64,000 nt of DNA. Origin: a bacterium (lineage in GTDB: Bacteria; Cyanobacteriota; Vampirovibrionia; Gastranaerophilales; Gastranaerophilaceae). The DNA is taken from the NCBI GenBank assembly GCA_017467605.1, contig JAFUSQ010000026.1, positions 1,976-65,975 of the forward strand, read 5' to 3'. The stretch's first letter is position 1; every line of letters starts with the position of its first letter. This document shows, in pieces, positions 1 through 53,215 of the stretch. The notes beneath the pieces were generated by a model. It was not told the origin of the DNA and made no database searches. It worked only from the letters and a program-made list of their open reading frames with translations. The translations under genes and the position numbers were made by a program.

Positions 1-281
1 TTTATCAAGTTTTTTTCGATAAGTCTATAAAAATTTTGGTCAAGTCTATTGTAATCAGAAAAATTTACTCTATATGGAATAATGCTTTCATTAAATTTTG
101 TATTAAGTTCTTCGATTATATTTTGCGGAATTTCGTTATTAGCCTTAATTAATATATCTAAATCAGAACTTTTTGTGTAATCACCTTTTACTCTTGAGCC
201 GTAATAATAAAATTCATAGGGGTATTCACTAATAATTTTTTTTATAATTTGTTCTTCTTTTTTTGTAATTCCTGTAATCAT
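1..281 (-). CDS. MNT-type minimal nucleotidyltransferase (partner of the HEPN protein); C-terminal end cut by the window edge
   Basis: Own minus-strand translation from ATG at 281: MITGITKKEEQIIKKIISEYPYEFYYYGSRVKGDYTKSSDLDILIKANNEIPQ... It contains the GSRxxGxxxxxSDxDxL nucleotidyltransferase motif. The start overlaps the HEPN stop (TAATG). Confidence 0.75.
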   Translation of the reverse strand, partial: MITGITKKEEQIIKKIISEYPYEFYYYGSRVKGDYTKSSDLDILIKANNEIPQNIIEELNTKFNESIIPYRVNFSDYNRLDQNFYRLIEKNLI

Positions 282-697
282 TAGTCCTCTAATGTTTTTT
301 CAAGTTCGTTGATTAAAAATTCAGTATCTTTGATAAAATTTGGTATAATATCCATCAAAACGTATGTTTTTTCAATGTCATATTCGTGCGAAGTGGTGTT
401 CCTCTTTAATCTGTATTCAGTCCAGCGTTCAAAGTCTTTAATAAAACCCAATCCGTACATATCTCTGAAAATATTGTTTATTGTAAGCTCTTTTTCATCT
501 TTATCGTATTCTTTTTTGAGGTATTTATTCATTATTTTTTTTGCAGTTTCGTATGTATATTCAAACCTTTTTATACATGAATCTTTTATATATGTTTTAA
601 TTTTATCATTTTTTTCTGCAATGTAATCTTTATAACACTCTGATAGAGTATTGTAGCTATTTTTCAGTGAAGATAAATCGAGTTCATTCTTTTTCAT
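281..697 (-). CDS. HEPN-domain protein (HI0074-like nucleotidyltransferase substrate-binding subunit)
   Basis: 138-aa ORF with an Rx4H motif (RNTTSH) near the C-terminus. It is translationally coupled to an MNT-type nucleotidyltransferase ORF. Confidence 0.8.
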   Translation of the reverse strand: MKKNELDLSSLKNSYNTLSECYKDYIAEKNDKIKTYIKDSCIKRFEYTYETAKKIMNKYLKKEYDKDEKELTINNIFRDMYGLGFIKDFERWTEYRLKRNTTSHEYDIEKTYVLMDIIPNFIKDTEFLINELEKTLED

Positions 698-2264: not shown

Positions 2265-2582
2265 GGTGTTTTGCCAAAAGGTATAAAGAATTTATTGACA
2301 CAATATTTTTAGCCTCAAAAATTGTTACAAAAATTTACAAAAAATTGCTAAAAATAACAAGTGTAAGCTTGACTACTAATATTGAAGTAATAAGATGAAA
2401 TAACATGCAAAAGTAAAGTCGGGTGAACTGTGCGAAAGCTTGTAAGTTTGACTAAGCAAGGGTTTTACCAACTTTTACAACTATCAAAAATTTGCATTTT
2501 CCGCCATGCCCGGCGGGGGTTTACAGCCTTAAGTTAGAAAAAAGATTTTTTAGTAGTACACCATTTAAAATGAGGTGAATTG

Positions 2583-5500: not shown

Positions 5501-5900
5501 TCAACAACCGTTGGGTGGTAAGGCTCAGTTTGGCGGACAAAGATTCGGTGAAATGGAAGTTTGGGCATTGGAAGCTTACGGTGCAGCTTATACTCTGCAA
5601 GAAATGTTAACAATTAAATCAGATGACGTTAACGGACGTAACAGAGCTTATGAAGCTATCGTTAAGGGTGACAATATCCCAAGACCGGGTATTCCTGAAT
5701 CATTCAAGGTACTTGTAAGAGAATTACAAAGTATCGGTTTAGATATAACAGTAGCGAAAAAAGACGGTCAGGAAGTTGACTTGATGACTGATATGGACGA
5801 TTTGAGAAAAGCTGCTCCAAAGCGTACATTGTCAGATGTTGACTCAGAGTTATTGAATATCAATTTCTTTGAAACACCGACCACTTTTGGCGATTTATAG
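2583..5900 (+). CDS. rpoB: DNA-directed RNA polymerase subunit beta
   Basis: About 1105 aa with typical beta motifs ([45 protein letters not shown]). ATG at 2583, 3 nt inside the TTG-initiated ORF. SD gaggtg upstream. Confidence 0.97.
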
Positions 5901-5909
5901 TAGATTACA

Positions 5910-5965
5910 ACCCTCCCCTTGAGGGAGGGTCGACATCTTTGATGTCGGGGCGGGTAATTCCCGCC
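5910..5965. repeat. Three consecutive short GC-rich hairpins (REP-like) between rpoB and rpoC1
   Basis: ccctccc/gggaggg (5911-5929), cgacatc/gatgtcg (5931-5947) and ggcggg/cccgcc (5949-5965). The same ccctc/gaggg family recurs in many intergenic regions. Confidence 0.7.
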
Positions 5966-5990
5966 AATAATAAAAAGGAGAAAATGACAA

Positions 5991-7700
5991 ATGTCAACAA
6001 GCATTGATTATTTTGATTATATACGAATAAGTATTGCTTCTCCGGAAAGAATACTTCAATGGTCGCACGGCGAAGTTACAAAACCGGAAACAATTAACTA
6101 TCGTACATTAAAACCGGAAAGAGACGGTTTATTCTGCGAAAGAATTTTTGGGCCGACAAAGGACTGGGAATGCTATTGCGGTAAGTATAAAAGAGTAAGA
6201 CATAAAGGTATCATTTGTGAACGCTGCGGTGTTGAAGTTACAGATTCAAAAGTAAGACGTCACAGAATGGGACACATCAAATTGGCTGCTCCTGTTTCTC
6301 ACATTTGGTTCTTAAAAGGTATTCCTTCATATCTTGGTTTACTTTTGGATATGACATTGAAGGATTTGGAACAAGTTATCTATTTCAACAGCTATGTTGT
6401 ATTAGATGGCGGTGATTCTGATTTCAAAAAACTTCAATTATTATCAGAAGAAGAATATGAAGACTACATGGCTGAAAACGAAGAATCAACATTAAAAGTT
6501 GGTATTGGTGCAGAAGCAATTAAAGAACTTTTATCAGAAGTTGATATCAAGACTTTGGCCGAAGAAATCAGAACAGAATTAGCAGGAAATGTAACATCTG
6601 TTCAAAAGAAATCTAAATTAATTAAGAGATTAAGATTGTTAGATTCTTTAATCTCATCAGATACAAATCCAACTTGGATGATTATGGACGTACTTCCTGT
6701 TACTCCACCGGATTTGAGACCTATGGTTCAATTGGACGGCGGACGTTTTGCAACATCAGATTTGAATGATTTGTACAGACGTGTAATTAACAGAAACAAC
6801 CGTTTACAAAGACTTTTGGAAATGGGTGCTCCTGAAATTATTGTTAGAAACGAAAAACGTATGCTTCAAGAAGCGGTTGATGCGTTAATTGATAACGGCC
6901 GCCGAGGAAGAACAGTTGTTGGCCCTAACAACAGAGCATTAAAATCTTTATCTAACATCATTGAAGGTAAACAAGGTCGTTTCCGTCAAAACTTGTTAGG
7001 TAAACGTGTTGACTACTCAGGTCGTTCAGTTATCGTTGTAGGTCCTACACTTCAATTGAATCAATGCGGTTTGCCTAAAGAAATGGCTATCGAATTGTTC
7101 AAACCGTTTGTTGTTAATAAACTTATCGAAAGAGGATATGTTCAAAACATCAAATCTGCTAAGAAGAAAATTGAAAGATCCGAACACATTGTTTGGGATA
7201 TCTTGGAAGAAGTAATTGACGGACACCCTGTAATGTTAAACAGAGCTCCAACCCTTCACAGATTAGGTATTCAAGCATTTGAACCAAAATTGGTTGAAGG
7301 TCGCGCAATTCAACTTCACCCGCTTGCTTGTACAGCATTCAACGCCGATTTCGACGGTGACCAAATGGCTGTTCACGTTCCGCTTTCAATTGAAGCTCAA
7401 GCTGAAGCAAGAATGTTGATGCTTGCAACTAATAACTTATTAGCTCCTGCTAACGGAAAACCAATTGTTACACCTTCTCAGGATATGGTCTTGGGTATGT
7501 ATTACTTAACTACTATCAAAGATCCTAACCAAGAAGTTAAAGGTTATTTCTATAACTTTGCAGATGCTATTTCAGCGTTTGAAGTCGGAGTAATCAAACT
7601 TCATGACAAAATCATTGTTCGTGATGAAAAGAACGAAAGACTTGAAACAACAGTTGGTAGAATTATCTTCAATGAAGAAGTTAGAAAAGCGTTAGTATAA
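5991..7700 (+). CDS. rpoC1: DNA-directed RNA polymerase subunit gamma (N-terminal part of beta-prime)
   Basis: 569 aa with the zinc-binding CxCGK...CxxC and the [12 protein letters not shown] catalytic motif. It ends at a real stop and is followed by a separate rpoC2. Confidence 0.95.
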
Positions 7701-7704
7701 AATA

Positions 7705-7886
7705 AGTAGGATAAGTAGTTAAGTGCGATAAGTAGGATGAGTTCTTTACAGACTTTAGAATTGCTAAATCCGAACAAATAGTTAAAATACCGAATAAATG
7801 ATAAGAACTTATCAAACTTAACAAACCTATCAAACTTATCCAACTAAAATAAAAGAATGTAGGGTGGGGTACCTACCCCACCAAAT
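7705..7886. repeat. Degenerate GATAAGT/ACTTATC imperfect palindrome plus the perfect palindrome ggtggggtacctaccccacc
   Basis: Left half is rich in ataagtagg units and right half in acttatc units. The palindrome lies at about 7865-7884. Related arrays occur at 26040-26122, 27800-27850, 33171-33245, 44160-44200 and 60320-60360. Confidence 0.6.
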
Positions 7887-7907
7887 AAAATATAAAGGAA
7901 AATTAGA

Positions 7908-10900
7908 ATGGAAATGACATATACACATGCAAAGAAAACTCCTGATTTCATTAACAAACAAATGGACAAAGGTTCTTTGAAGAAATTGTTAGGTCAAATG
8001 TATTTGGAATACGGCGGAGCGAAAGCTGCATCTTTAGCAAATGCTCTTAAAAATTTAGGCTATAAATACGCTACTGTTTCAGGTACGACAATTTCAATTG
8101 CTGACTTATCGGTTCCTGAGTCTAAGAAAGCGTTGTTAAAATCAGCAGAAGAAGAAATTGAAAAATCTACAAACAGATACCTAAAAGGTGAAATCACAGA
8201 GGTAGAAAGATATACAAAAGTTATTGACACTTGGTCAGAAACAACAGCTAAGTTGACTGAACAAGTTGTAGAAAATTTTGACAGATTAAACCCTGTATAT
8301 ATGATGGCATTCTCCGGAGCTCGTGGTAACTTATCACAGGTTTCACAGCTGGTTGGTATGAGAGGTTTGATGGCTGATGCACAAGGTCAAATTATTGACT
8401 TGCCGATTAAATCAAACTTTAAAGAAGGCTTATCCGTTACGGAATACATCATTTCATCATACGGTGCTCGTAAAGGGTTAGTAGATACAGCGTTGAAAAC
8501 AGCCGATTCAGGTTATTTAACAAGACGTTTGGTTGACGTTGCACAAGATGTAATAATTAGAGCTGACGATTGTCATACTGATAAATATATTAATATGAAG
8601 CCGATTATGGACGGAGATGTTGTTATCGTTCCATTAATCGACAGATTATTAGGCAGAACAGTTGCTCAAGATATTGTTGATGCTGATGGTAATGTTTTAG
8701 TTGCTAATGGTACAACAATGGATAGAAATGATATTAAGAAAATTTCAAACTTAGATTTGCAAGAACTTAAAGTTCGTTCAGGTTTAACTTGTGGTTTGGA
8801 ATATGGTGTCTGCCAAAAATGTTACGGTTGGGCAATGACAACACAAAAACTTGTTGATATCGGTGAAGCTATCGGTATTATTGCAGCTCAGTCAATCGGT
8901 GAACCCGGTACACAGCTTACAATGAGAACCTTCCACACAGGCGGTGCGGTTGGTGTTAAAGAAGCTAAGAAAGAAATTTTAGCTCGTGAAGCAGGTACGG
9001 TAATTTCAAAAATTAAAGCAAGAGAACTTAGAACTCGTCACGGTGATGTTGTACAAGTTTCTATGTACGAAGCTGATATTGAAGTTAAAGGCGAAAAACG
9101 TACAACTAAATATCACATTCCTGCAGGTGCAACATTGTTTGTAACTGATGGAATGAAGGTTTCTAAAAACTTCAAAATGGCAGAACATGCTCCATCATCT
9201 CAAGGTGACAGTTCTCGTTTGACAGAAAAAGCTACAAAAGATATTACAACTGATATTTCAGGTGAAATCGTATTTGAAGATTTCAAAGCTGATGAAAAGA
9301 AAGACAGACAAGGTAATATTTCAAGAACAACTAATAAACAAGGTGTTATTTGGGTATTAGGCGGTGATGTTTATACATTACCTGGTGGTTCTAAAGTTCT
9401 TGTTAAAGATGGACAACAAGTAACTGAGGGCGAAAAACTTGCTGAAACATTGACTATTTCTGAACATGGCGGTGAAGTCAGAGTTGGTGAAGATTTAGTT
9501 ATTGAAGATGCTCAATTTGACGGTAAAAAGATTAAGAAAATTGTTCAAGGTAAAGAATTAACAATTGTTATTGCATCTTTGAAGCCTGAAAATGCATCAT
9601 TTGAACAAACTAAAAAAGAACAACTTTGGACTGTAGATAAAACAGGCGAAAAATATATTGTTAAAGCTCCTGTTGATACAACAGTAGAAAACGGTATGAT
9701 TATTGCCGAATTAATTGATGATGATTGTGCAGTTACTTCATCAGGTGAAATCAGATACGTTGATGTTGAAGTAGACGAAAATCAAATCATTACAAAACCT
9801 GGTAAAGTTGTATTTATACCTGAAGAAGTACATCAAATTAATAAAGATTCATCATTGAAAATGGTAGAAAACGGTGCAACTGTTACTGCGGGTACAGAAG
9901 TTGTTAAAGATGTATATTGTCACATTGACGGTGTTGTAGAATTCAAAGAATACAACGACGTAATTCACGAAATTACAATCAGACCCGGCGAAGTTCATAC
10001 TTTATCAAACATTTCAGAATTGAAAGTTGATGAAGGTGAAGTTGTTAAGAAAGGTACGGTAATTGCTGAAGGAATTAAGGCAAAAGCTACATCTATTGTT
10101 ACAATTATGGATTCATCAGTTGATGAATTAGCTTCATTAGATGATTTAGATGAAGAACTGGATTCATCTCTTTCATTAGATGATGATTCTATTGCTAACC
10201 AGCCTGTACAAATTCTTGTAAGACCTGTTCAAGTATTAGAAGTTACACAAAAAGATGTATCAATTAAATTTGATGCATCAGACGAATTAATTGATATCAT
10301 TCCTGTAACTCAATTACAATACAAAGACGGTGCAAGAGTTAGAAATGTTGATGGTGCAACAATTACAAGAACAAGCTTAGTGCTTCAAATGCAAGGGTAC
10401 TTATCACATCTTAAAGGTATGGTAGAACTTGACAAGAAAGGTGCTTTAAGAATTGTTGTGTTAGAAAACTTGATTGTACGTCGTGAAATGGAAGGTTCTG
10501 CTCAATCTTCATTACAAACAGCATTGCTTGTTAAGAATGGCCAAACAATTAAACCAAAAACTCCTGTTGCAAAAACTCAGGTTCTTGCAATGCATGATGC
10601 GGTAGCATCAATTAAAAATAAAGCTGATGATATCAGAAGACTTCTTTTAATATCTGAAAGCTCAGAAACTAATGTTAACGTAAAGGGCAAAGCAGTTGTT
10701 AAGAAAGGTGACTTTATTAAAACCGATAAGGTTCTTGCTGAAAGTGGAGAAACTTCTCCGGTATCAGGTATTGTAACCGGTGTTAATAAAGGCAAGATTT
10801 CAATCAGAAACGGTCGTCCTTACTTAATCAGCCCGGGTACAATGTTACAAATCGATTCAGGCTCTTTGGTATTAAGAGGTGACTTACTTGCAACATTAGT

Positions 10901-11759
10901 ATTTGAAAGAGAAAAAACAGGCGATATCGTTCAAGGTTTGCCGAAAGTTGAAGAACTTTTGGAAGGTAGAAAGCCAAAAGATTGTGCAATTTTAGCCGAA
11001 TATGACGGTACTGCAAAAATAGAAATTGATGACGATGGTTTGCCAAGATTATTCTTGCTTGACGAAGAAGGTTCATCAACTGAAATTAAATATGCGATTG
11101 ATTCTAATGTAATCGTATCAAACGGACAAAAAATCACAAAAGGTCAAGCGTTGACATCTGGTCCTATGAACCCTCATGATGTAATGAGATTATGCGGTCC
11201 GGAAGCAGCTCAACAATATTTGGTAGATGAAGTTCAACGTGTATACCGCTCTCAAGGTGTTGAAATTGCGGATAAACATATTGAAATCATAGTTCGTCAA
11301 ATGACTAAGAAAGTTCGTGTTGTTGATGCCGGTGATACAAACTTGTTACCTGGAGAACTTATCGAAGTTCAAACATTTGAAAAAGAAAATAAAGCTGCAG
11401 AAGAAGCAGGAAAACAATTAGCAACTTGTGAATTCATGTTGTTAGGTATTACAAAAGCTTCATTGAATACTGAAAGCTTTATTTCAGCAGCATCATTCCA
11501 AGAAACTACAAGAATTCTTACGGAAGCTGCTGTTGACGGTAAAAAAGACTTATTAAGAGGTTTGAAAGAAAACGTTATTATTGGTCGTTTGATACCGGCA
11601 GGTACAGGTTTCCACCATTTGATTAATGCTGACGAAGAACGCGATAGAGAAGAAAGAAAACGCGTTGTTGCACAAAGAAATCAAGCAAGAAAACCTTCTG
11701 CAATTTTGGAAGAAATTGAAGGAATGTTTGGTGCACCTGATTTCAATATCGAAGAATAA
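7908..11759 (+). CDS. rpoC2: DNA-directed RNA polymerase subunit beta-prime (C-terminal part, with a large lineage-type insertion)
   Basis: 1283 aa with a conserved trigger-loop/bridge region ([47 protein letters not shown]) interrupted by several hundred residues before the conserved C-terminal block. Confidence 0.95.
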   Translation: [1283 protein letters not shown]

Positions 11760-19571: not shown

Positions 19572-20438
19572 ATGAAAAAACGACAAATTAAAGATGACAG
19601 GGGTAAAAATGATTCCCTTGTCCAAGGGGAGAGTGGACAAACAGTTAACTTATCTGCCCCGATGGGGGAAGTGGCACGAAGTGCCGAAGGGGAAGTATCC
19701 CGTAGGGTTGCTTTTACGTTAGCAGAAATCCTCATAACAATCGGCATAATCGGAGTAGTCGCGGCAATGACTATCCCGACACTTATTCAAAAAAATCAAA
19801 AAAGAATTATTGAAGCTAGTATCAAAGAGGATTATTCAATAATTCAACAGGTTATTCGTCAAAATGAAGCTAATGATATCGATATAGTTTCGGAATTTAA
19901 AGATGGTGATACTCAATTTTTAAAAACGTGGTTTGAAACATATTTTGCACCGTATATGAAATATAATCGTGTTTGTTACAATAAAGCTGGCTGCTGGCAA
20001 AATAGGGGTTTAAACAAAGCATTGAGCGGTATAAGTGTTCATATTGATCGTGGTACCATAGGTGTTGGAGAAAATATAATTACTGTAAAGTTAAATAATG
20101 GTTCAAATTTAAATTTTGATGTTTGGGCTACCACAAACTCTATAACCAATGTTAATGCTTGGAATTATTTTGGTATACGTACAAATTCACCTGTTTTGAC
20201 TATTTATATAGATGCAAATGGTGATTCTCCTCCAAATGTTTTTGGAAAAGATATTTATGTCATGGCGTATGCTCCGGAAACAGGTTTGGTTTATGCCGGT
20301 TATCATAGGACAGATAGTGAAATTAATAAAAATTGCTCAAAAAATGCAACTGGCAGCAATGCCGGTTTTTATTGTCTAATGCGAATTAAAAATCATGGCT
20401 GGCAGATTCTTGATGAGGTTTGGAGAATTAAGACCTAA
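19572..20438 (+). CDS. Type IV pilin-like protein with a long leader containing a REP element
   Basis: VAFTLAEILITIGIIGVVAAMTIPTLI prepilin motif about 46 aa after an SD-preceded ATG. Leader residues QTVNLSAPMGEVARSAEGEVSRR are encoded by repeat 19641-19707. Confidence 0.75.
   Translation: MKKRQIKDDRGKNDSLVQGESGQTVNLSAPMGEVARSAEGEVSRRVAFTLAEILITIGIIGVVAAMTIPTLIQKNQKRIIEASIKEDYSIIQQVIRQNEANDIDIVSEFKDGDTQFLKTWFETYFAPYMKYNRVCYNKAGCWQNRGLNKALSGISVHIDRGTIGVGENIITVKLNNGSNLNFDVWATTNSITNVNAWNYFGIRTNSPVLTIYIDANGDSPPNVFGKDIYVMAYAPETGLVYAGYHRTDSEINKNCSKNATGSNAGFYCLMRIKNHGWQILDEVWRIKT
19641..19707. repeat. REP family D copy (ctgccccga.ggggaagtggcacg.agtgccg.aggggaagtatcccgtaggg)
   Basis: 62 of 67 nt identical to 28195-28261. 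A shorter copy lies at 52847-52885. Confidence 0.85.
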
Positions 20439-27988: not shown

Positions 27989-28036
27989 AATAAATGTAGT
28001 TATAAAACATACAAGAATACACAGGAGGTATTAAAA

Positions 28037-28081
28037 ATGTCAAAACGCAAGTATAGCCTGAATTTCGGGGGGGGCTTCTAG
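28037..28081 (+). other. 14-codon ORF with a strong SD, terminated just after a G8 homopolymer (28067-28074); one extra G would fuse it to the DGR target ORF
   Basis: ATG TCA AAA CGC AAG TAT AGC CTG AAT TTC GGG GGG GGC TTC TAG. The target frame is open from 28057 onward. Confidence 0.5.
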
Positions 28082-28373
28082 AGCCTCCTGTTGACCGGGT
28101 TTCAGCCGATTTAGAATGTGGGGTTAATTTATGTAACCCTGAAAATTTATTATGTCATTCAAAACATTTATTCGCCCAACAGACGAGTGAACAAACTGTT
28201 AACTTACCTGCCCCGATTGGGGAAGTGGCACGTAGTGCCGTAGGGGAAGTATCCCGTAGGGATTCAATCAAAAGTTTCGTGTTGGGCAGGTATGCCCAAC
28301 TTACATTATGTCACCCTGAACTCGTTTCAGGGTCTAAAAAACAGATGCTGAAACCAGTTCAGAATGACAAAAA
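28057..28373. repeat. Patchwork of at least 4 REP-like modules upstream of or inside the 5' end of the DGR target ORF
   Basis: Family D at 28195-28261, hairpin gttgggca-ggta-tgcccaac at 28281-28300, and family C (caccctgaac..ttcagggt plus atgctgaaac.agttcag.atgac) at 28309-28373. All have copies elsewhere in the window. Confidence 0.75.
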
Positions 28374-29397
28374 TAAGAAAGCTGCCTTCACCCTTGCAGA
28401 GGTCCTCATTACTATCGGAGTAATCGGGGTGGTTGCAGCAATGACAATGCCGACATTGATAAGAGGAATTGCGGAACGCAGTAATTCAGAAACACAGGCA
28501 AATGTTGCACAAAAGATTACCAAATCAATGGATTTGATGCGTGCAGACGGAAAATTGGAAAGAACATACGAAAGTACTGACGCGTTTGTTGATGAACTTT
28601 CTAAGTATTTGAAAATAACAACCCGTTGTAATGCTGCTAATATAGATAAATGCTGGCCAACTTCAACAGTAACGACATCAGACGGAAAAACTTTTGAAGT
28701 AAAAAAAGCTAAGAAAGGTAAAAACTTACAAATAAAAAGTAACACAACAGATAACGTCGGAATGATTTTGGCAGATGGAACTTCATTGATTATGACCTAT
28801 AACCAAGATGCCGCTTTAATTGGTGATGGTGATACAGTATCTCCATCATTTGCAACGTTACCGATAGGTTTTGGCAGAACAAAGAAATATGCATATACAA
28901 CCAGTGTAACAGATCCTATAGACTTTGTAATGGACGTAAACGGCTTTAGAGGACCAAATAGTGAAACCCGCGATGGCAAATACAATGATATCCGTTCATT
29001 TAAAGTTGCGAAATTTTCAGAAGGTTGTGCAGGAATCGAAGTTGATGGTATTGGTTGTGTATATGTACTGCCATCATTTTCAGCTATAGATACTTGTAGC
29101 GATAAGACTTATGATTCCAACGGAACAAGTAACTCATATTGTTCAAATAACAGATGGGCAGGAGCAAAGAAGGCATGCTCAGATATAGGAATGAGCTTAC
29201 CCGGAACCGGCACATTGCAAGCAATCTATAACAAATCCAAATCTGACCCGAGTTTGGGCCTACCTACTTCGGGTTACTTCTGGTCGTCTGCCGAGATCAT
29301 TGCAAATTACGCGTACGCCGTGAATTTATACAATGGCTACACGAACGGCAGCATCAAGTACTATTCGGGTTTCGGAGGGTTGTGTATAGGTGATTAA
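28225..29397 (+). CDS. DGR target protein: type IV pilin-like N-terminus plus a C-terminal lectin-like (DUF1566/CLec-type) domain carrying the VR
   Basis: Prepilin motif KKAAFTLAEVLITIGVIGVVAAMTMPTLI. The C-terminus is NRWAGAKKACSDIGMSLPGTGTLQAIY...GYFWSSAE...GLCIGD, and its last 43 codons are the VR. The true start is uncertain: GTG 28225, ATG 28345, or ATG 28037 after a frameshift. Confidence 0.85.
   Translation: MARSAVGEVSRRDSIKSFVLGRYAQLTLCHPELVSGSKKQMLKPVQNDKNKKAAFTLAEVLITIGVIGVVAAMTMPTLIRGIAERSNSETQANVAQKITKSMDLMRADGKLERTYESTDAFVDELSKYLKITTRCNAANIDKCWPTSTVTTSDGKTFEVKKAKKGKNLQIKSNTTDNVGMILADGTSLIMTYNQDAALIGDGDTVSPSFATLPIGFGRTKKYAYTTSVTDPIDFVMDVNGFRGPNSETRDGKYNDIRSFKVAKFSEGCAGIEVDGIGCVYVLPSFSAIDTCSDKTYDSNGTSNSYCSNNRWAGAKKACSDIGMSLPGTGTLQAIYNKSKSDPSLGLPTSGYFWSSAEIIANYAYAVNLYNGYTNGSIKYYSGFGGLCIGD
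29269..29397 (+). repeat. DGR variable repeat (VR), 129 nt, the last 43 codons of the target including the stop
   Basis: Aligns without gaps to TR 30191-30319. There are 21 mismatches, and 18 of them lie at TR adenines. Confidence 0.9.
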
Positions 29398-29417
29398 TTT
29401 TTCCTATTTCCCTATTT

Positions 29418-29442
29418 GGTGGATTTCTTCAGGAAATCCACC
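29418..29442 (+). other. 10-bp-stem hairpin 21 nt downstream of the VR (candidate DGR target-recognition hairpin/cruciform)
   Basis: ggtggatttc-ttcag-gaaatccacc. Confidence 0.45.
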
Positions 29443-29673
29443 CTATCGATAGCACGGAACACCAAAATAGAAATTTTTTTAAAATATTTAATTGTAACAG
29501 TATAATTTTATATCATAAAAATCTCCAAAACTTAGTAACAACAAGTGTTTACACTATATAATTTACTAAAAATAAGATAAAATGTACATGAAATAGGTCG
29601 AAACTGTTACAAAACTACATGAAACAAATACGTATGTATACCAAGCATAGCAAGTATTTGACGGGACAGAACA

Positions 29674-30045
29674 ATGGCACAATATAATACTTTACCAATC
29701 TATAAAGCAACATATGATGTTTTGCTGCGTGTTATGCATGCAGTGTCGCATTTCCCGCGTGAATATAAATATTCACTCGGGGAGAAAATTCAAAATGAAA
29801 TAATCGAGTTGGTTATTTATATTTACAAAGCAAACAGTACAAAAAACAAAGTTGAATTTTTAACTAAAATGCAGGAACAAATTCAGTTAGTATATCTTTT
29901 GTTACGAATTTCGCATGATATGAAGCTTATGCCTACTCAAAAATATGCAGGTATTGTTAAGATGATTGATGAAGTATCATGCCAAGCGAAAGGGTGGTTA
30001 AGAGTAAATGAAAAATTGCGAGAGCCTGTTGATGCTAAGGCTTAA
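29674..30045 (+). CDS. avd: DGR accessory variability determinant (Avd; four-helix-bundle protein)
   Basis: 123 aa with predicted helical repeats (LPIYKATYDVLLRVMHAVSHFPREYKYSLGEKI...). Sits between the target and the TR-RT. Confidence 0.8.
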   Translation: MAQYNTLPIYKATYDVLLRVMHAVSHFPREYKYSLGEKIQNEIIELVIYIYKANSTKNKVEFLTKMQEQIQLVYLLLRISHDMKLMPTQKYAGIVKMIDEVSCQAKGWLRVNEKLREPVDAKA

Positions 30046-30190
30046 CAGGGAGTGCGTTTTTCATCACGTGGGGAGCAGTACTTCATAAGAGGAACTAAAT
30101 TTGAGATAACATCAAAGTTGTTATTTTTGATGGAAATATGTCAGTTATGATAAATTTTCTTCGATTCTAACATCAAGAGACTTCCTGTCA

Positions 30191-30319
30191 TCGGGTAACT
30201 TCTGGTCGTCTGCCGAGAACAATGCAAATAACGCGAACAACGTGAATTTCAACAATGGCAACACGAACAACAACAACAAGAACAATTCGAATATCGGAGG
30301 GTTGTGTATAGTTGATGAA
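30191..30319 (+). repeat. DGR template repeat (TR), 129 nt, adenine-rich (12 AAC and 6 AAT codons in the VR frame)
   Basis: Non-coding copy of the VR located 39 nt upstream of the RT start. Confidence 0.9.
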
Positions 30320-30357
30320 ATGTTATATTTTTTATTTATTCTTAATCTTTTCAGTAT

Positions 30358-31482
30358 ATGAATTATGATTTTACTTTAGCTGATTTATTTAAAGCTTATT
30401 TTGACTGCCGTAAAAATAAGCGGTGTAAATTAACTGCATTAAAATTTGAAATAAACCTTGAGAAAAATTTGTTAGATTTGTATAAAGAAATTAAGTCCGG
30501 AAATTATAAAATCGGACGCAGTATTTGTTTTGTTGTAACTCACCCGAAACCTCGTGAAGTTTGGGCAGCTAATTTCCGCGACAGAATTGTTCATCATCTT
30601 ATTTACAATTTTATCAGTGAAAGATTTTACAAAAGATTTATCAAAGATACTTACAGCTGTATTCCAAAAAGGGGAACTCTCGCTGCTGCTAAAAGATTGT
30701 TACATTTTTCACGCAGTGCTACAAATAATTATACAAAAGAAATGTACTATCTTAAAGCTGATATGTCCAACTTTTTCGTTTCAATAAATAAAAATATTTT
30801 GTTTGAATTGTTAAAAAAATATGTTCATGAAGAATGGATTCTGGCTATTCTTAAAAAAATCATATATAATGATCCGACTAAAAATGTTTTAAAAAAATCA
30901 TCTCGCAAAAAATTCAGGCTTATTCCGTCATATAAAAGCCTTTTTAATTCTGATTGCTGTCACGGTTTACCTATTGGGAATTTGACCAGTCAGTTTTTTA
31001 GTAATGTGTATCTTGATGTGTTAGATCAATATATTAAACACAATTTGAAATGCAGGTATTATGTACGATATGTGGACGATTTTATTATTATTGCTGAAAA
31101 TCCGCATATCCTAAATTCTCTTTTTGACAAGATTAGATCTTTCCTATATGAAAGTCTTAATGTAACACTTCACCCCAAAAAAAAGCTTGTTAATAAATTG
31201 ACTGTAGGTATGGATTTTGTAGGTTTTATTGTTAAGCCTGCAAGAATGCTTCTTAGACAGAATATATTAAGAAGAATTTTTGAAATTATTAAAATTTGGA
31301 AAAATGCTCACAATATGTTTGAGTATTTTATTTTGAATAAATTCTTTAGAACAATTAACAGTTATCTGGGCATGCTTATAAATGTCAGTTCATTTAATAT
31401 CAGATTAAAAATTGCATTGCTCGTTAATAGTTTGTTTATTCGTCCTGATTTTTCTTTTTCAAAAGTCGTGTTGTGTTATTAA
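30358..31482 (+). CDS. DGR-type reverse transcriptase
   Basis: 374 aa. LPIGNLTSQFFSNVYL carries the [ILV]GxxxSQ signature of DGR RTs. YVRYVDDFIII is the catalytic YxDD box. There is no maturase, endonuclease or retron-type extension. Confidence 0.9.
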   Translation: MNYDFTLADLFKAYFDCRKNKRCKLTALKFEINLEKNLLDLYKEIKSGNYKIGRSICFVVTHPKPREVWAANFRDRIVHHLIYNFISERFYKRFIKDTYSCIPKRGTLAAAKRLLHFSRSATNNYTKEMYYLKADMSNFFVSINKNILFELLKKYVHEEWILAILKKIIYNDPTKNVLKKSSRKKFRLIPSYKSLFNSDCCHGLPIGNLTSQFFSNVYLDVLDQYIKHNLKCRYYVRYVDDFIIIAENPHILNSLFDKIRSFLYESLNVTLHPKKKLVNKLTVGMDFVGFIVKPARMLLRQNILRRIFEIIKIWKNAHNMFEYFILNKFFRTINSYLGMLINVSSFNIRLKIALLVNSLFIRPDFSFSKVVLCY

Positions 31483-31636
31483 GAAAATTACTATTTATTG
31501 ATTGTACAAAGCCCTTTACATTTATGATTGTTCTTGATAAGCTTATTCATAATATGGGTTAAGGTTTAATTACCTTCACCCCGCGGCTCTCTCAGAAAGG
31601 GCGAGGGAGTAATTTATATAGAAAGAGGGATTAGTT

Positions 31637-38301: not shown

Positions 38302-38889
38302 TTATTTTTTAGCATATAATTTAACTTTGAAATTGATAAGTAAAACTCGTTTGTTCTTTTTATATGGAACAATTTCTGCGGATTGAATATCAAGAAAATG
38401 TTCGTGTTTATATAATTCTTTTAAGAAATTATCATAATTTCCGTAATTTGCAATCATTTCCATATTCAATCTTGCAACATTGTATTTGTCACCTGCACCT
38501 TGAACAAAAGCATCATCTTGAGGGTCATAATCATATTTAATTGATCTTACTTTGATTTTATTAACCCTTACCAATTGAAGAATTTCTGCAAATTCACCTG
38601 CAATAACAGCTTCTGTATCCATACCTGACATTACGGGTTTGTAGAAAGGTTTGCCGCTTTGAACATTAGCTTTTTCCATAGCTTTTTCTTCTTGTTCTTT
38701 TCTTTTGTATTCTTCAAGCTTGGCTTGTTTTTCTTTTATAGTAGTATTTTTGGTTTCAATTTCAGCTTTTACGCTTGTATAACCCTGAAAGTTTTCAACA
38801 ACTTTAGGAGCTAACATAACAACCCCTGCAATTGTTAATACTACTAAAAATATAGGTATAATAAACTGTTTTAATTTATCGCTATCCAT
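38302..38889 (-). CDS. PilO-like type IV pilus assembly protein (inferred)
   Basis: 195 aa with an N-terminal TM segment (IIPIFLVVLTIAGVVMLAP) followed by a coiled coil. Lies immediately downstream of the PilM/N-like ORF. Confidence 0.45.
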   Translation of the reverse strand: MDSDKLKQFIIPIFLVVLTIAGVVMLAPKVVENFQGYTSVKAEIETKNTTIKEKQAKLEEYKRKEQEEKAMEKANVQSGKPFYKPVMSGMDTEAVIAGEFAEILQLVRVNKIKVRSIKYDYDPQDDAFVQGAGDKYNVARLNMEMIANYGNYDNFLKELYKHEHFLDIQSAEIVPYKKNKRVLLINFKVKLYAKK

Positions 38890-38905
38890 TTTTTATCCTT
38901 TTATA

Positions 38906-40615
38906 TTATTCTGCTTCTTCTGTTGTTTGAGCTTGTTGAGCAGGCTCATTTGCAGCTGATGTATTATTATCAGCATTTGCATTATTATCTTTATTTTCAG
39001 GTTTCGGATCAGGTTTTCCTGCTAATCTGTTCATAAATGATTTCAATTCACTTTCGTCCATGTTTGTAATTTCAAATACATATGGAGCTGAATCAATAGT
39101 TGAAGCAGTACTGTTGACAACATTATCCAATGAACCTGCTTTTAAATCTAATTTGCTTAAGCGCAATTTTGATTCAAGAAGTGAATCTTTCAAGTTTTTG
39201 AAGAATACATAAACATCTTCTACAGAATCAGCACAACCTTTAATATTAATTTTACCGTTGTCACCTGTTAAGAAATATGTCAAATACAAATTCTTAGGAA
39301 TTGATTCACCTAATGCGGCATACGCCATAATTTTAACTCTGTTGTTTTTCAAAACATTTTCAATTTCTGCATTAGGATCAAATTCTGTTTTGCCTGAAGT
39401 TTTTTCGTATGCTTTTAATTGTTCATCAAGTTGAGTAATTTGATTATCGAGCTCTGAACTTTGACTTTGTGCTGAAGATAGCATTCCTTGAGTCATAAAG
39501 TATGCAATACCGATTGGAGTCATAATAAGAGCAAGTAATATTATCATAATAATAGTTGCTTTTAATGGTGTTAATTCAAATACGCTATTACCAATCGGAA
39601 TTTCAATGACTGCAACTTGAGGTTTTGCCTTACCGTTTTCTGCAAGGAAATTAACATCAACAGGCATTAATCCTGCCGGAGTCATTGTACCTATAGCATG
39701 TAAAGAAACTTTTATTTGATCATCTGATAAGATGTTCAAACTCATTTCCATTAAAGGTTCTTTTTTAAATTGGTTATCTTCAACAAATAAAGTATTTCCC
39801 GCAAATTGTAAACGACCTGCAAGAATTTCTGCTGAAGCCAAATCTGTTTCAGATAATATAATTAATGAACTTGAAGGAGTACTCATCAGAGCAATTTGAG
39901 CAGCATTTTCAATAGCGGCATAGATTTCTTCTCCTTCATAAGATTTAATCGGTAAAGGTTCTTCATAATATTCAAGAATTTTTTTACCTTGAAGGTTCAA
40001 CATTTGGAAGCCTGTGTTGTTAACAATCATCAAGCTCCAAGAGTTTCCTTCCTGCATTTGCTGAGAAGCAATACCCGTAACTTGTAAAGCTTTTAAATCT
40101 GCAAACAATGAGCATTCAACACTTACTAAAGTTGCACCCATTGAACTTAAAATACTTCTGATTTGTTCAACTGCATCAGCTTGAATTGCTGTATAAAATA
40201 CGCTTCTTGAATCTGAATTTTGTGAGACTAAATTATCAAACCAGAAAGGTAACGGTTCTTTACGTTTGAAAATATAAGTTTGTTCAAGTTCTCCGACTAC
40301 AATATTTGTAACAGAACTTTCATCTAGCAATAAAGGAATACCTTCTTTTGAGCCGAACCAAACAGTTGGAACACTCAAATGAACGTTAGCCTTTGCAGGG
40401 TTGATGTTGCGCATTTGGAATACTTCTTCCAATGCATTTCTAAAAGCATCATAGCTTGCAATTTCTCTTTGAGCTTCGTTATACGCTAAATCGGTTTGTG
40501 CATAAGACTTGATATTTCCGTATTTATCAAGTTCAATCATTTCCAAACCGCTTGTTTGCGATACAGAGATGTATACGTCTATTCCCCCGCCCATTCCAAA
40601 TAAATTATTTAACAT
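38906..40615 (-). CDS. PilM-PilN-like fusion protein (inferred)
   Basis: 569 aa. The N-terminal part of about 340 aa starts with an actin-fold-like GIDVYISVSQTSGLEMIEL. It is followed by a single TM segment (IIMIILLALIMTPIGIAYF), a coiled coil and an acidic tail. Confidence 0.45.
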   Translation of the reverse strand: MLNNLFGMGGGIDVYISVSQTSGLEMIELDKYGNIKSYAQTDLAYNEAQREIASYDAFRNALEEVFQMRNINPAKANVHLSVPTVWFGSKEGIPLLLDESSVTNIVVGELEQTYIFKRKEPLPFWFDNLVSQNSDSRSVFYTAIQADAVEQIRSILSSMGATLVSVECSLFADLKALQVTGIASQQMQEGNSWSLMIVNNTGFQMLNLQGKKILEYYEEPLPIKSYEGEEIYAAIENAAQIALMSTPSSSLIILSETDLASAEILAGRLQFAGNTLFVEDNQFKKEPLMEMSLNILSDDQIKVSLHAIGTMTPAGLMPVDVNFLAENGKAKPQVAVIEIPIGNSVFELTPLKATIIMIILLALIMTPIGIAYFMTQGMLSSAQSQSSELDNQITQLDEQLKAYEKTSGKTEFDPNAEIENVLKNNRVKIMAYAALGESIPKNLYLTYFLTGDNGKINIKGCADSVEDVYVFFKNLKDSLLESKLRLSKLDLKAGSLDNVVNSTASTIDSAPYVFEITNMDESELKSFMNRLAGKPDPKPENKDNNANADNNTSAANEPAQQAQTTEEAE

Positions 40616-43559: not shown

Positions 43560-44160
43560 GATTAAGTTCTTTACGGTTATTAATCTCTCCGTCATTGCGA
43601 GGGAGGAACGACCGAAGCAATCCAGACAGAATTGTGCAAGTGTTTCTGGATTGCTGCGCTCCCGTTGGTCGCTCGCAATGACATTAATTTTCTTATTGCC
43701 GGATTGGTAAATCTGACCTACATAACTTTGAACAATATTGCGATTTTTTGGGCTTCGCCCTCAGAATGCCCCCTCACTCGTCCTCCGGGCACCCTCTCCC
43801 GCCGGTGTAAACCTCGCAAAGCTCGTTAACACCGTACTCCCTGCGACTCGCTAACGCTCCCTGCACGCAGTCTCACTCAAAATTTTTGTCATTCAAACTG
43901 ACATCGTAGATGTCACCCTGAACTTGATTCAGGGTCTAATTCAGAATCTTCAAAAATTTTGGTTCGGCTAGTGTCTCCAAATGGGAGAGGTTTCGGAAAT
44001 TAAAATTTGTAACTTTCCCTCGCCCACAATATCAATTTAGTGGGAGAGGGTGGTTGAGCGAAGCGAAACCGGGTGAGGGAATGGGTGAGCGGACGAACAA
44101 TGAAATAGTAACAATGCCCTCCCACATGGGGCGAGGGTACTATTACCCAAAAATCACCTT
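43560..44160. repeat. Cluster of several REP-like families, non-coding
   Basis: Imperfect palindrome of about 90 nt, gtcattgcgag...ctcgcaatgac, at 43591-43682. caccctgaacttgattcagggt lies at about 43915-43936. ccctc/gaggg-type hairpins lie at 43985-44150. All families have copies elsewhere, for example at 60040-60300 and 52920-53215. Confidence 0.8.
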
Positions 44161-45876: not shown

Positions 45877-47886
45877 TTGGAAAATGTAGATAAAAAAATA
45901 TTAAATAAGACTGAAAAGTCGGGAAAGAAAAGCTTAAGTTCCAATCCTATCAATAAGGTCAAATCACCTGTTGAAGGACTTAAGATGATTTCTGTCCCTA
46001 AAAATTCCGCATCAACTGATACTTCGGTTACTAAAGATAAAGATTTAGCTAAAACAAAGAAAAAGCTTGATAATTTAATAAAACCTATTTCTGTTGCTGA
46101 GGAGGCAAGCCTTGACAGTATTGTTGAAACAATTAACAATTTCAACAATACCAAAACTCGAACAAGACTTTATGCTAATAATAATTATAATGCCGGCAAT
46201 AAAATCTCAACGCATAATGTAAATTATTTTGAGGTTATGAAAAGCTTATATGATGCCTTTCAAAATAATAAAAACATGGTGGATTTATTTGCGAAATTAA
46301 ATGATATTTTTATAAATAAGTTAAAGTGGAATTTTGTAGGATTTGGTCTTTTTCATGAAAAGTCGAAATGTATTAATTTAAAATTATTTAGCAAAACAGG
46401 TAATACCTATTCATCAAAAGTATTTTTATCAGATGAAAACAACCCTATTATACAAAGTTTTAATACAAAATCTATGATAGATAAGGATAATATCAATTAT
46501 TTAAATATTCCTTATCTTATAAAATGCGGTTCTGTTATTTTCCCAATGATATCAATAAACAAATGTATCGGTGTCATGATTGCTGGACAGGGTATTTCTA
46601 ATATGCATATGAATATGGTTTCCTTTATTTCTAATTATATGGGAATGTATATTCACAATTTGCAATTGCAGGAAAAAACAAATAAATTTGCAAATACGGA
46701 TACTTTAACGTCATTATACAATCACAGAGGATTTCAGGAAATCCTTGCAAAAGAATTGTCAAAGGCAAAAGATACGGAAACTTCTTTGTCTGTTGTGATG
46801 TTTGATGTAAATAATATTTCAAAGATTAACAGGGAACTTGGTCATGCTAAAGGTGATGAAGTTATTAAAACTATTGCGGAAAAAATTAAACAGAACATAA
46901 GAGCAACTGATTCGGCAGGACGATACGGCGGTGATGAAATTGCCGTAATTATGCCTGAAACCGGTACAAAAGATGCTAAATATTTGGCAGAATATATTAC
47001 ATATTGTTTATCTTGTTGTTTTGTTGATGATGTCGGCCCGATTAAAGTTTCTGTCGGAATCTCTACATTCCCTGAATGTACAATTGATCAGGAAAAATTA
47101 TTGATATTGGCAGAACAGGCAATGTTTATTTCTCAGGCAAAAGGTTATAAAGAAGGAATGTCTGCGATAATCAGTTCTTCAGATTTTAATTTCTGGGACG
47201 ATGTTGCATTGAATTCTTTTGCTGAAGTTCTTGCAAAACGTCACTCGCAAATTGGTATAAATTTTGAAGAAGAACTTGTTCACAAATTTAATCAGGAAGA
47301 AATAATGAACCATAACCACTTGATGGAAATGGTTACATCGCTTGCCGGTGCAATTGATGCAAAAGATCCTTATACAAAGGGTCACTCAACGTCTGTTTCT
47401 CGTTATGCAGAAGCACTTGCCCGTGCTATTAATCTTCCTGAGCATGAAGTTGAAAGAATTAAAATCGGTGCTATGCTTCATGATGTTGGTAAAATCGGTA
47501 TTCCGGAAAATGTTCTGAAAAAACCCGGCAAACTTACTGATGAAGAATGGGAAATTATGAAACAACACCCGACAATTGGTGCTGAAAAGGTACTTGCACC
47601 AAATGAAGCTTTGAGAGATTTAATTCCTATTGTAAAATATCACCATGAAAGATTGGACGGAAAAGGTTATCCTGAACATTTGAAGGGTGATGAAATTCCG
47701 CTTTCTGCAAGGATTGTTTCTGTTGCAGATGCTTACCATGCACTTGTCAGTGACAGACCTTACAGAAAAGGTATGCCGATTGAGAAAGCATGTGCAATAT
47801 TAAAAGAAGGTGCCGGAGTTCAATGGGACAGCGATTTGGTTCGCAGATTTATTTCTATTGCGCCGTCTTTAACTACAAAAGTGTAG
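45877..47886 (+). CDS. GGDEF (diguanylate cyclase-type) plus HD-GYP domain protein with an N-terminal sensor-like region
   Basis: RYGGDEIAV GGDEF-type site. HD-GYP motifs HDVGKIGIP and HHERLDGKGYP. The start is uncertain (TTG). Confidence 0.85.
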   Translation: MENVDKKILNKTEKSGKKSLSSNPINKVKSPVEGLKMISVPKNSASTDTSVTKDKDLAKTKKKLDNLIKPISVAEEASLDSIVETINNFNNTKTRTRLYANNNYNAGNKISTHNVNYFEVMKSLYDAFQNNKNMVDLFAKLNDIFINKLKWNFVGFGLFHEKSKCINLKLFSKTGNTYSSKVFLSDENNPIIQSFNTKSMIDKDNINYLNIPYLIKCGSVIFPMISINKCIGVMIAGQGISNMHMNMVSFISNYMGMYIHNLQLQEKTNKFANTDTLTSLYNHRGFQEILAKELSKAKDTETSLSVVMFDVNNISKINRELGHAKGDEVIKTIAEKIKQNIRATDSAGRYGGDEIAVIMPETGTKDAKYLAEYITYCLSCCFVDDVGPIKVSVGISTFPECTIDQEKLLILAEQAMFISQAKGYKEGMSAIISSSDFNFWDDVALNSFAEVLAKRHSQIGINFEEELVHKFNQEEIMNHNHLMEMVTSLAGAIDAKDPYTKGHSTSVSRYAEALARAINLPEHEVERIKIGAMLHDVGKIGIPENVLKKPGKLTDEEWEIMKQHPTIGAEKVLAPNEALRDLIPIVKYHHERLDGKGYPEHLKGDEIPLSARIVSVADAYHALVSDRPYRKGMPIEKACAILKEGAGVQWDSDLVRRFISIAPSLTTKV

Positions 47887-52841: not shown

Positions 52842-53215
52842 TTATTCTGCCCCGAGTGGGGAAGTGGCACGTAGTGCCGAAGGGGTATTATCATAAGTGG
52901 AAAATTGAAAGTGGAAAGTGGAAAATATAATATAACACCCCTCCTGTTCCCTCACCCGCCCTTCGGGGCACTCAATTGATGTTGTGGGAGAGGGAGCCGT
53001 TGTTAACGAGCTTTGCGAGATATACAACGGCGGGAGAGGGTATAAACTTAGCAATAAAAAAGTAACAATGCCCTAGCAAGGGGAGGGAAGAATTTTAACA
53101 CGAGTTTACGAGTGTTAGAAATTCGGGCGGGGTCTTAACCCGTAGGGAAAATTTAAAATGTCGGCATAGCAATGCCGACCTACGTTACTCTCCCTTAAGG
53201 GGCGAGGAATTCACA
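52842..53215. repeat. Cluster of REP-like families, non-coding
   Basis: Family D at 52847-52885, ccctc/gaggg hairpins, and gtaggtcggcattgctatgccgac as an inverted copy at about 53158-53186 of the copy at 21718-21745. Confidence 0.8.

Follow-up and report, generated by a model that had tools for sequence, protein, structure and literature searches.

A complete diversity-generating retroelement predicted to vary the lectin tip of a type IV pilin-like protein in a gut Gastranaerophilales bacterium

Which of its proteins does a gut bacterium expose to targeted hypermutation, and how would such a protein be made and displayed? These questions are raised by a diversity-generating retroelement (DGR) found in a 64,000 bp stretch of contig JAFUSQ010000026.1 (GenBank assembly GCA_017467605.1, positions 1,976 to 65,975), here called the window, from a member of the Gastranaerophilales (Melainabacteria). 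Coordinates are those of the window, all features are on the + strand unless stated, and other loci used for comparison are referred to by L numbers. An initial annotation of the window had described a complete DGR that hypermutates the C-terminal tip of a type IV pilin-like protein, and all of the tests run on this core claim agree with it. The support comes from the placement of the reverse transcriptase (RT) in the DGR clade, an accessory protein of the bAvd family, nucleotide differences that are specific to adenines, a class III (prepilin) signal, the register of the Phe at position 1 (F1) of the mature protein, and a confident structural model.

The DGR consists of four co-oriented features, namely the target open reading frame (ORF) with the variable repeat (VR) at its 3' end, avd, the template repeat (TR) and the RT gene, in that order. 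The RT (30358-31482, 374 aa) had been recognized by its LPIGNLTSQ and YVRYVDD motifs. Both are present, the latter including the YVDD box, and the ORF also matches the RVT_1 profile. Its closest relative of known structure is the Bordetella phage DGR RT (8ub7, E 2.9e-38). The next match is at E 3.7e-9, and the group II intron, retron and Drt RTs are found at 1e-9 or worse. The ORF in the position of avd (29674-30045, 123 aa), for which a bAvd-like accessory function had been proposed, matches Pfam bAvd (PF22296) with 61.7 bits against a cut-off of 40, and scores 69.5 bits with NCBIfam DivGenRetAVD (NF033474), under the cut-off of 80. The TR (30191-30319) is an A-rich, intergenic direct repeat of 129 nt, with 48 A and 19 AAY (AAC or AAT) codons, and only about 38 nt separate it from the start of the RT gene. 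The VR (29269-29397) makes up the last 43 codons of the target ORF, stop codon included. The non-coding stretch between avd and the TR (30046-30190) is conserved in a paralogous DGR cassette that lies upstream of the window (74 % identity between the two cassettes across 308 nt), and is probably part of the DGR RNA, judging from this conservation. The order target-avd-TR-RT is that of the prototype BPP-1 element. Given this order, the RT, the bAvd protein and the TR/VR pair, the element qualifies as a canonical DGR with all of its parts, and it is located in the chromosome of a gut Gastranaerophilales bacterium.

The TR and VR had been placed correctly in the initial annotation, and form a gap-free direct repeat with an offset of 922. 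They differ at 21 positions, and 18 of these are adenines in the TR (binomial P 6.8e-6, for 48 A among 129 nt). All 18 adenine mismatches affect the first or second base of a codon in the target ORF. The template sequence, SGNFWSSAENNANNANNVNFNNGNTNNNNKNNSNIGGLCIVDE, includes 12 AAC and seven AAT codons, and these 19 AAY codons allow about 10^25 possible protein variants. Each of the conserved cores shared by the VR and TR occurs exactly twice in the 64 kb, where about 0.01 occurrences are expected. As they are found only at the VR and the TR, the window contains a single VR and a single TR. Further VRs in the window were rejected on the same grounds, leaving one target. The TR of the neighbouring DGR (TR2) was also rejected as the donor. 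The VR is 76 % identical to TR2 over 93 nt, compared with 83 % identity to the TR in the window (TR1) over 134 nt, and the 3' end is unmatched in TR2.

At the 3' boundary of the VR (29372-29400), an 18 nt core, TCGGAGGGTTGTGTATAG, is identical in the TR. Non-adenine differences between the VR and TR are found past this core at 29390, 29395 and 29400, in an arrangement like that of the initiation of mutagenic homing (IMH) sequence and its counterpart IMH*. The VR ends with GAT TAA, where TAA is the stop codon of the target gene, and the TR equivalent is GAT GAA. The same pattern, with GGTGATTAA in the VR and GAA in the TR, is also seen in the sister loci described below. A hairpin with a 10 bp stem and a 5 nt loop (29418-29442) begins 21 nt past the stop codon. 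Its folding z-score is -3.7 and none of 200 shuffled sequences folds equally well. In one sister locus, L032, a hairpin of like shape and spacing is present, the sequence of its stem being different. In BPP-1, both the IMH and the hairpin that follows the VR have roles in homing, and the 18 nt core and downstream hairpin found here fit, by analogy, the elements that direct retrohoming in the Bordetella phage system. A third non-adenine difference within the VR is found at 29328 (TR 30250), where the TR has C and the VR has A at a third codon position. This replaces Phe with Leu at a site that is Phe in nearly all homologues.

The sequence and the structural model identify the target as a predicted modular type IV pilin-like protein that bears a variable C-type-lectin tip. 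In the databases, it is called as a 390 aa ORF with a GTG start (28225-29397). The class III signal (28387-28449) includes the mature N-terminus FTLAEVLITIGVIGVVAAMTM and has Ala at -1, Phe at +1 and Glu at +5, and the cleavage site reads KKAA followed by FTLAEVLITIGVIGVVAAM. A prepilin-type signal had been noted here by eye, and it is matched by N_methyl (PF07963, 23.4 bits, cut-off 21.2) and by TIGR02532 (17.2 bits, cut-off 16.3). Profiles of the target family put F1 at residue 1 of mature PilA, geopilin and GspG, with E-values down to 2e-9. Conservation was examined in a diverse alignment of 42 sequences with a mean column identity of 30 %, which was also used for the second of two structural models. 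N_methyl is matched by 37 of the 42 family members, residue -1 is A or G throughout, and FTLAE, three Cys pairs and a DVNGxxxPN motif are invariant or near-invariant. C278 and C347, which correspond to the conserved disulfide of the C-type-lectin fold, are invariant.

A first AlphaFold2 (AF2)-type model, built from 29 close homologues, was poor over the N-terminal two thirds, with a predicted local distance difference test (pLDDT) score of <50 for the pilin module. The second model improved on this because the 42-sequence alignment is more diverse, and reached a pLDDT of 90.7, with a helix at residues 17-67, strands at residues 138-219 and a compact C-terminal domain. In the predicted pilin module (28387-29019), the alpha-1 helix spans 51 residues and leads into an alpha-beta region, where a Cys pair is conserved, and then an antiparallel sheet. 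It is followed by a tip module (29062-29394) with a C-type-lectin fold that is Lcl_C/DUF1566-like by both Foldseek and profile comparison. The best Foldseek match, in keeping with the lectin-like module proposed from the sequence, was the C-terminal domain of Legionella Lcl (8q4e, probability 1.0, TMt 0.52), and the runners-up were animal and snake-venom C-type lectins, Bdellovibrio Bd2740 and InvE. The family profile matches 8q4e at E 0.0022, and 13 of the 42 family members match PF07603 (DUF1566/Lcl_C). In the model, the VR-templated residues, 311-343 in the 350 aa form of the protein, are in the last strands of the C-type-lectin domain.

Where translation of the target begins is a separate question, and here the initial annotation was incomplete. 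The 3' part of the ORF coordinates 28225-29397 stands, but the GTG at 28225 is probably not the start. A Shine-Dalgarno (SD) sequence, AGGAGG (28023-28028), is located 8 nt 5' of an ATG at 28037, and homologous genes open with the same SD-ATG module, making this the likely true start. The 5' leader that begins at this ATG (28037-28081), MSKRKYSLNFGGGF, does not share the frame of the pilin ORF in the assembly and ends at a stop codon at 28079-28081. The homologues start with MSKRSHRAxFGGG, and the in-frame versions continue directly into the pilin ORF. The GGG of the leader is encoded by a poly-G tract, G8 in the window (28067-28074), which had been overlooked and which places the SD-ATG out of frame. 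It is the sole run of seven or more G or C in the 64 kb. The use of the GTG as the start is probably a by-product, because the G8 introduces a frameshift between the SD-ATG and the pilin frame. With G6, G9 or G12, an ORF of 452-454 aa (453 aa for G9) would begin at ATG 28037, and other tract lengths would give only 14-19 aa.

The pilin reading frame, which is the body of the target gene, is open across the G tract (28057-29397), such that both frames are open around it. The 110 codons from 28057 to 28386 are stop-free in the pilin frame, and this was so in only 17 of 20000 shuffles. An ATG at 28345 (MLKPVQNDKNKKAA followed by F) is a possible alternative, internal start. A scan for promoters and terminators gave nothing beyond the shuffle expectation. 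The leader-coding region also contains an insert (28080-28344) consisting of a GC-rich palindromic repeat that resembles a miniature inverted-repeat transposable element (MITE) or repetitive extragenic palindromic (REP) sequence. The insert is open in frame and encodes CHPELVSGS and MLKPVQND. Related GC-rich palindromic repeats are found at about 43590-44140, 52940-53145 and 31560-31612, and in the neighbouring cassette (L037 1100-1440). Palindromic repeats, for example CCCTCCC...GGGAGGG and the unit encoding CHPELVSGS / MLKxVQxD, are dotted over a genome that is otherwise 33 % GC.

Among 17 homologous loci, the tract varies from G7 to G12, and about half of the genes are in frame, the remainder being out of frame with both frames open. 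A further 80 metagenome loci (L043-L122, 437 kb), independent of these, were retrieved using only the FTLAE motif. In this set, 32 of the 41 G runs of seven or more are within 450 nt 5' of the pilin motif and on the coding strand, compared with 1.9 expected (P 7e-35). Out-of-frame tracts with both frames open account for 24 of the 30 that could be scored. Overall, the tract lengths range from G7 to G14 with a mode of G10, and in-frame and out-of-frame states are both represented among homologous genes. Of the G10 tracts, 17 of the 20 that could be scored are out of frame, mostly in one register, and three more are cut by contig ends. The association with poly-G concerns pilin-like genes generally and extends beyond the DGR targets (L007-L042 and L043-L122). 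As far as we have found, the tract has not been described before as a lineage-wide signature of pilin-like genes. Its anatomy is that of a slippage-controlled gene, such as Neisseria pilC, and on this likeness the tract may serve as a switch.

The target belongs to a large family, with 1880 clusters at 90 % identity (E <=1e-3) and 95 clusters at 50 % identity (E <=1e-30). Most members of this family are found without an adjacent DGR, a point that was missed when the locus was first read. Among the loci found via the target, no RT is present within 4-6 kb in any of the 27 genome loci or the 80 metagenome loci. The metagenome-assembled genome (MAG) UBA6446 includes at least ten pilin-lectin paralogues (L004-L011, L018-L021), scattered over several contigs, with no RT within 6 kb of any of them. 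A single TR that templates all of the UBA6446 paralogues was considered and rejected, as their C-terminal tails differ by indels and at non-templated positions. However, a search from the RT side found four distinct sister DGRs (RT 53-65 % identical) that adjoin proteins with the AFTLAE pilin N-terminus and a lectin tail. At least three of the four are from human-gut samples. Their housekeeping neighbourhoods and gene orders vary, and in one locus two targets flank the DGR core. RTs of this clade number 6228 hits at E <=1e-20. Because of this contrast between the RT side and the target side, an expanded pilin-lectin family seems to have existed first, with the DGR recruiting some of its members. 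In the locus with two targets (L033), the pilin-lectin genes (5475-6734 and 9704-10966) flank the avd-TR-RT core and each has its own G10 tract. L031 and L032, which are otherwise near-identical to L033, have only one pilin-lectin gene.

The sister loci also provide evidence for activity. L032 and L033 have identical RT and TR, and differ at 39 positions over 9.4 kb. The 135 nt VR accounts for 17 of these differences, and 16 of the 17 are at TR adenines. Similarly, L034 and L036 differ at five VR positions, all of them at TR adenines. As the sisters differ between samples almost only at TR-adenine positions, the sequences indicate that these elements, and hence the DGR lineage, are active. Across 29 target homologues, the entropy is 2.85 bits at AAY-templated positions, compared with 0.78 for VR codons that contain no A and 0.24 for residues 15-240 (Mann-Whitney P 1e-6). 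From its intact parts and from the sister elements, we infer that the DGR in the window may be active as well. The closest target homologue from another sample series (L042 2510-3703) is 83 % identical and has a different neighbourhood. The contig continues for 1.8 kb downstream without an Avd or RT, and the tip of this homologue still differs at AAY-templated positions.

Taken together, we consider it probable that a canonical DGR diversifies the lectin tip of a type IV pilin-like protein that is displayed on a filament and gated by the poly-G tract. By homology with the Bordetella phage system, the TR-containing RNA would be reverse-transcribed by an RT-Avd complex, with misincorporation opposite adenines, and the resulting cDNA would replace the VR at the 3' end of the target gene. 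A prepilin peptidase would then cleave the target, which would enter a type IV filament, most likely at the tip, and act as a hypervariable adhesin or receptor when carried on the filament. The filament may be a pilus or a pseudopilus. Translation from the SD-ATG at 28037 would be gated by the slippage-prone G8, which is in the OFF state here, and one added G would restore the full ORF. On/off switching of the G tract, via either DNA or transcriptional slippage, would add to the hypervariation due to the DGR. A broader proposal is that gut Melainabacteria use two layers of contingency, with poly-G tracts switching members of the family and DGRs rewriting the lectin tip of selected ones. We put this forward tentatively, as having a little less than an even chance of being correct. 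If true, the two layers would generate a combinatorial, hypervariable pilus-tip repertoire from an expanded type IV pilin-lectin family, and would have arisen convergently with the DGRs that vary type V pilins in Bacteroides.

A number of observations weigh against this reading. At -1, the target has Ala where Gly is usual, and the in-frame leader would be 117 aa, which is very long for a prepilin. A match to the DUF1566/Lcl_C profile had been suggested as a check, and PF07603 is unmatched by the target itself at E <=0.1. The target gene is a singleton between coaD and gpmI, outside any pilus operon, and a prepilin peptidase, an assembly ATPase and a secretin are all absent from the window, with no assembly genes adjacent to the target. 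Foldseek with the full model returned lectin-fold matches only and no solved pilin for the globular module, and hence the pilin fold of this module is argued from its topology. The location, the lack of adjacent assembly genes and the Foldseek result would all fit a protein in which the pilin-like N-terminus is only a membrane anchor or export signal. The target would then be a cell-bound or pseudopilus-type (type II secretion-like) receptor that is never polymerized. The GspG pseudopilin models match the target about as well as the PilA models, and genomes carry ten or more such genes scattered on the chromosome, which is also as expected for such a receptor. Nevertheless, we consider this unlikely. 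F1, E5 and the 51-residue alpha-1 helix drive filament assembly, and they are near-invariant despite the mean column identity of 30 %. In a diderm, a pilin that was not assembled would strand the lectin in the periplasm, where diversification would be without obvious use. Modular pilins with C-terminal binding modules are known on filaments (PMC8179133), and Gastranaerophilales genomes encode pilA, pilB, pilC, pilT and pilD (PMC5877343). That the element is part of a prophage and the target a phage receptor-binding protein is suggested by reports that gut DGRs are often phage-borne and that C-type-lectin targets are typical of phage tail fibres (bioRxiv 10.1101/2024.11.15.621889). However, there are no phage genes in the window, the flanks consist of coaD, ribosomal protein genes, gpmI and a SNF2 helicase gene, the target has a prepilin signal, and the sister DGRs are in varied housekeeping neighbourhoods. 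This origin is highly improbable and, in view of the lack of phage genes in the window, was rejected for practical purposes.

Other observations weigh against the activity and the switching of this particular copy. No VR variation was seen at the window locus. The L001 and L002 contigs are 100 % identical over 9-13 kb, the VR is identical across all contigs seen for the strain, and an identical 390 aa protein is found on six contigs of the same study. As the G8 puts the SD-ATG out of frame here, the protein may depend on ATG 28345 for its translation, may be restricted to a minority of the cells, or may not be made. These findings, and the one non-adenine VR change at 29328, could be accounted for if the element were a quiescent relic, in which the VR/TR differences are traces of earlier retrohoming and a frameshift has made the target of this strain a pseudogene. 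There is only a slim chance that this is correct, as the RT and Avd are intact with catalytic motifs present, the pilin frame is open for 110 codons 5' of the pilin motif and through the tract, and the sister elements vary between samples at TR-adenine positions. Moreover, decay does not produce the out-of-frame-but-open layout that was found in 24 of 30 independent loci. Alternatively, the G tract may not switch heritably, and transcriptional slippage or ribosomal frameshifting may set a constant low level of the pilin-lectin. Homopolymer runs of nine or more cause slippage by RNA polymerase. No length polymorphism of the G tract between copies of one locus was found among the loci compared, and the dominant out-of-frame G10, with most in one register, fits transcriptional slippage or assembly bias as well as it fits phase variation. 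However, the tract lengths vary from 7 to 14 and homologous genes are found both in and out of frame. Genic G tracts of similar length act as DNA-level switches in Neisseria pilC (PMC5953494). We take a constant low level to be rather unlikely, though a serious contender.

The genes that surround the DGR are consistent with a chromosomal location. The window includes rpoB and ribosomal protein genes, with coaD directly 5' of the target and gpmI and the SNF2 helicase gene 3'. At 2580-11759, rpoB is followed by a split rpoC, consisting of rpoC1 (5991-7700) and rpoC2 (7908-11759). Because a split rpoC is a cyanobacterial hallmark, this supports the taxonomic placement. Related loci are from MAGs titled Candidatus Gastranaerophilales, Melainabacteria or 'Cyanobacteria bacterium UBA6446', and homologues of one neighbouring gene are labelled Gastranaerophilaceae. 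The contigs that contain the exact locus belong to a ruminant gut metagenome series. An Rfam scan of the window found two tRNAs only.

Two non-diversified pilin-like paralogues (1605-2264 and 19572-20438) had also been reported in the window. Both share the AFTLAE(V/I)LIT motif, have weak matches to pilin families, and are without a G tract. The claim that PilM/N/O-like genes are present (38302-40615) was weakly supported. The 569 aa product of 38906-40615 (- strand) is a PilN-domain protein that may be a PilM-PilN fusion, and it is the one hint of type IV filament machinery in the window. It scores 22.6 bits with PilN, just below the cut-off of 22.8, and its homologues in Melainabacteria are named PilN or fimbrial assembly protein, but sequence searches of NCBIfam and PDB with these ORFs gave no match. 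In the same neighbourhood, 45877-47886 encodes a 669 aa protein with GGDEF and HD-GYP-type (HD_5) domains, which suggests cyclic-di-GMP signalling.

The second, paralogous DGR cassette is on the same contig, at L037 430-2593 (window position 1 corresponds to L037 3222), about 630 bp before the start of the window. The Avd and RT are 78 % and 77 % identical, respectively, to those in the window, and the cassette has its own AAC-rich TR2. Its target has been lost to the contig end. The genome therefore has two paralogous DGR cassettes within 30 kb. Between the second DGR and the first pilin-like paralogue, the gene at 281-697 (- strand) and the adjacent upstream gene (L037 3215-3502) form a nucleotidyltransferase / nucleotidyltransferase-substrate-binding pair, a module like the MNT/HEPN-type toxin-antitoxin systems.

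To our knowledge, no natural system other than DGRs hypermutates proteins in a targeted way in prokaryotes, and the choice of target reveals what a cell must recognize. We know of no culture from the gut of these non-photosynthetic relatives of cyanobacteria, nor of any account of how they interact with hosts or neighbours. With a type IV scaffold, the most widespread surface filament of prokaryotes would carry a library of some 10^25 potential lectin tips, and the poly-G tract, if the gating is real, would be a second and independent switch on the same gene. The mechanism itself is that of a standard DGR and is already known. What is new is the display scaffold, a modular type IV pilin-lectin, and its combination with a putative slippery-tract gate.

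The initial annotation had regarded a pilin-like target as a novel class. This holds in part, as no characterized type IV case was found. However, a type V pilin case has been characterized in Bacteroides, and surveys list pilin domains. Two publications list a 'GspG-type pilin' domain (PMC11661182) and 'putative pilin structures' (PMC6642488, citing Paul et al. 2017) among DGR targets. No paper that links Melainabacteria with DGRs was found. The word 'pilin' was absent from Wu et al. 2018 and from those supplements of Roux et al. 2021 that were searched, and the main text of Roux et al. 2021 was not among the matches for DGR together with pilin. The sole paper found to include both 'diversity-generating retroelement' and 'homopolymeric tract' is a study of the Campylobacter capsule.

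One of the nearest known systems is the BPP-1 DGR (mtd-avd-TR-brt), with which the element shares the gene order, a VR at the 3' end, the bAvd family, adenine changes at AAY codons, a variable domain with the C-type-lectin fold and a hairpin past the VR, and the BPP-1 RT is the nearest solved relative (8ub7). The element differs in being chromosomal in Melainabacteria rather than in a phage, and in having a prepilin-type target rather than the tip of a tail fibre. The distance of about 38 nt from TR to RT and the poly-G gate on the target are further differences. DGR targets of the DUF1566/Lcl_C type, such as those of the Legionella LdtA and Treponema TvpA classes, likewise end in a C-type-lectin fold that contains the VR. 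The known ones are lipoproteins or have other export signals, whereas export and display of the target found here would use the prepilin route.

Bacteroides DGRs diversify the tip pilins of type V pili (bioRxiv 10.1101/2024.11.15.621889). The likenesses are that the hosts are gut commensals, that the DGR varies the C-type-lectin head of a pilus subunit, that the modular pilin gene families are large and scattered, and that VR haplotypes differ between samples. However, those pilins are lipoproteins from another phylum that assemble by strand exchange after cleavage by a protease, while the target in the window is of type IV, with a class III signal and an alpha-1 helix, and neither an integrative and conjugative element nor a prophage provides the context here. 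A poly-G gate was not met in the accessible part of the Bacteroides study, where no search was aimed at one. The parallel suggests that variable pilus adhesins have been favoured convergently in the gut.

Modular type IV pilins, namely PilB and PilC of Streptococcus sanguinis and CofB of enterotoxigenic Escherichia coli, also combine an N-terminal pilin module (IPR012902 motif) with a C-terminal ligand-binding module that is proposed to be exposed at the filament tip, and lectin modules occur among them (PMC8179133, PMC9934059, PMC6048534). Their binding modules are static and are concanavalin-like, vWA or H-type lectin, whereas the module described here is Lcl_C/DUF1566-like and would be rewritten by a retroelement. 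The closest counterpart of the G tract is in Neisseria pilC, a pilus-associated adhesin gene with a homopolymeric G tract in its 5' coding region, for which in-frame and out-of-frame states, and switching between them, have been demonstrated experimentally (PMC5953494, citing Jonsson et al. 1991). Unlike the target in the window, PilC does not belong to the pilins, and switching has been shown for pilC, while it is proposed here from tract anatomy. The tract in the window is shorter (G8), and the same gene is also mutagenized by the DGR. If both layers operate as suggested, the arrangement would be functionally analogous to the phase variation of pilC together with the antigenic variation of pilE in Neisseria, but built with a retroelement.

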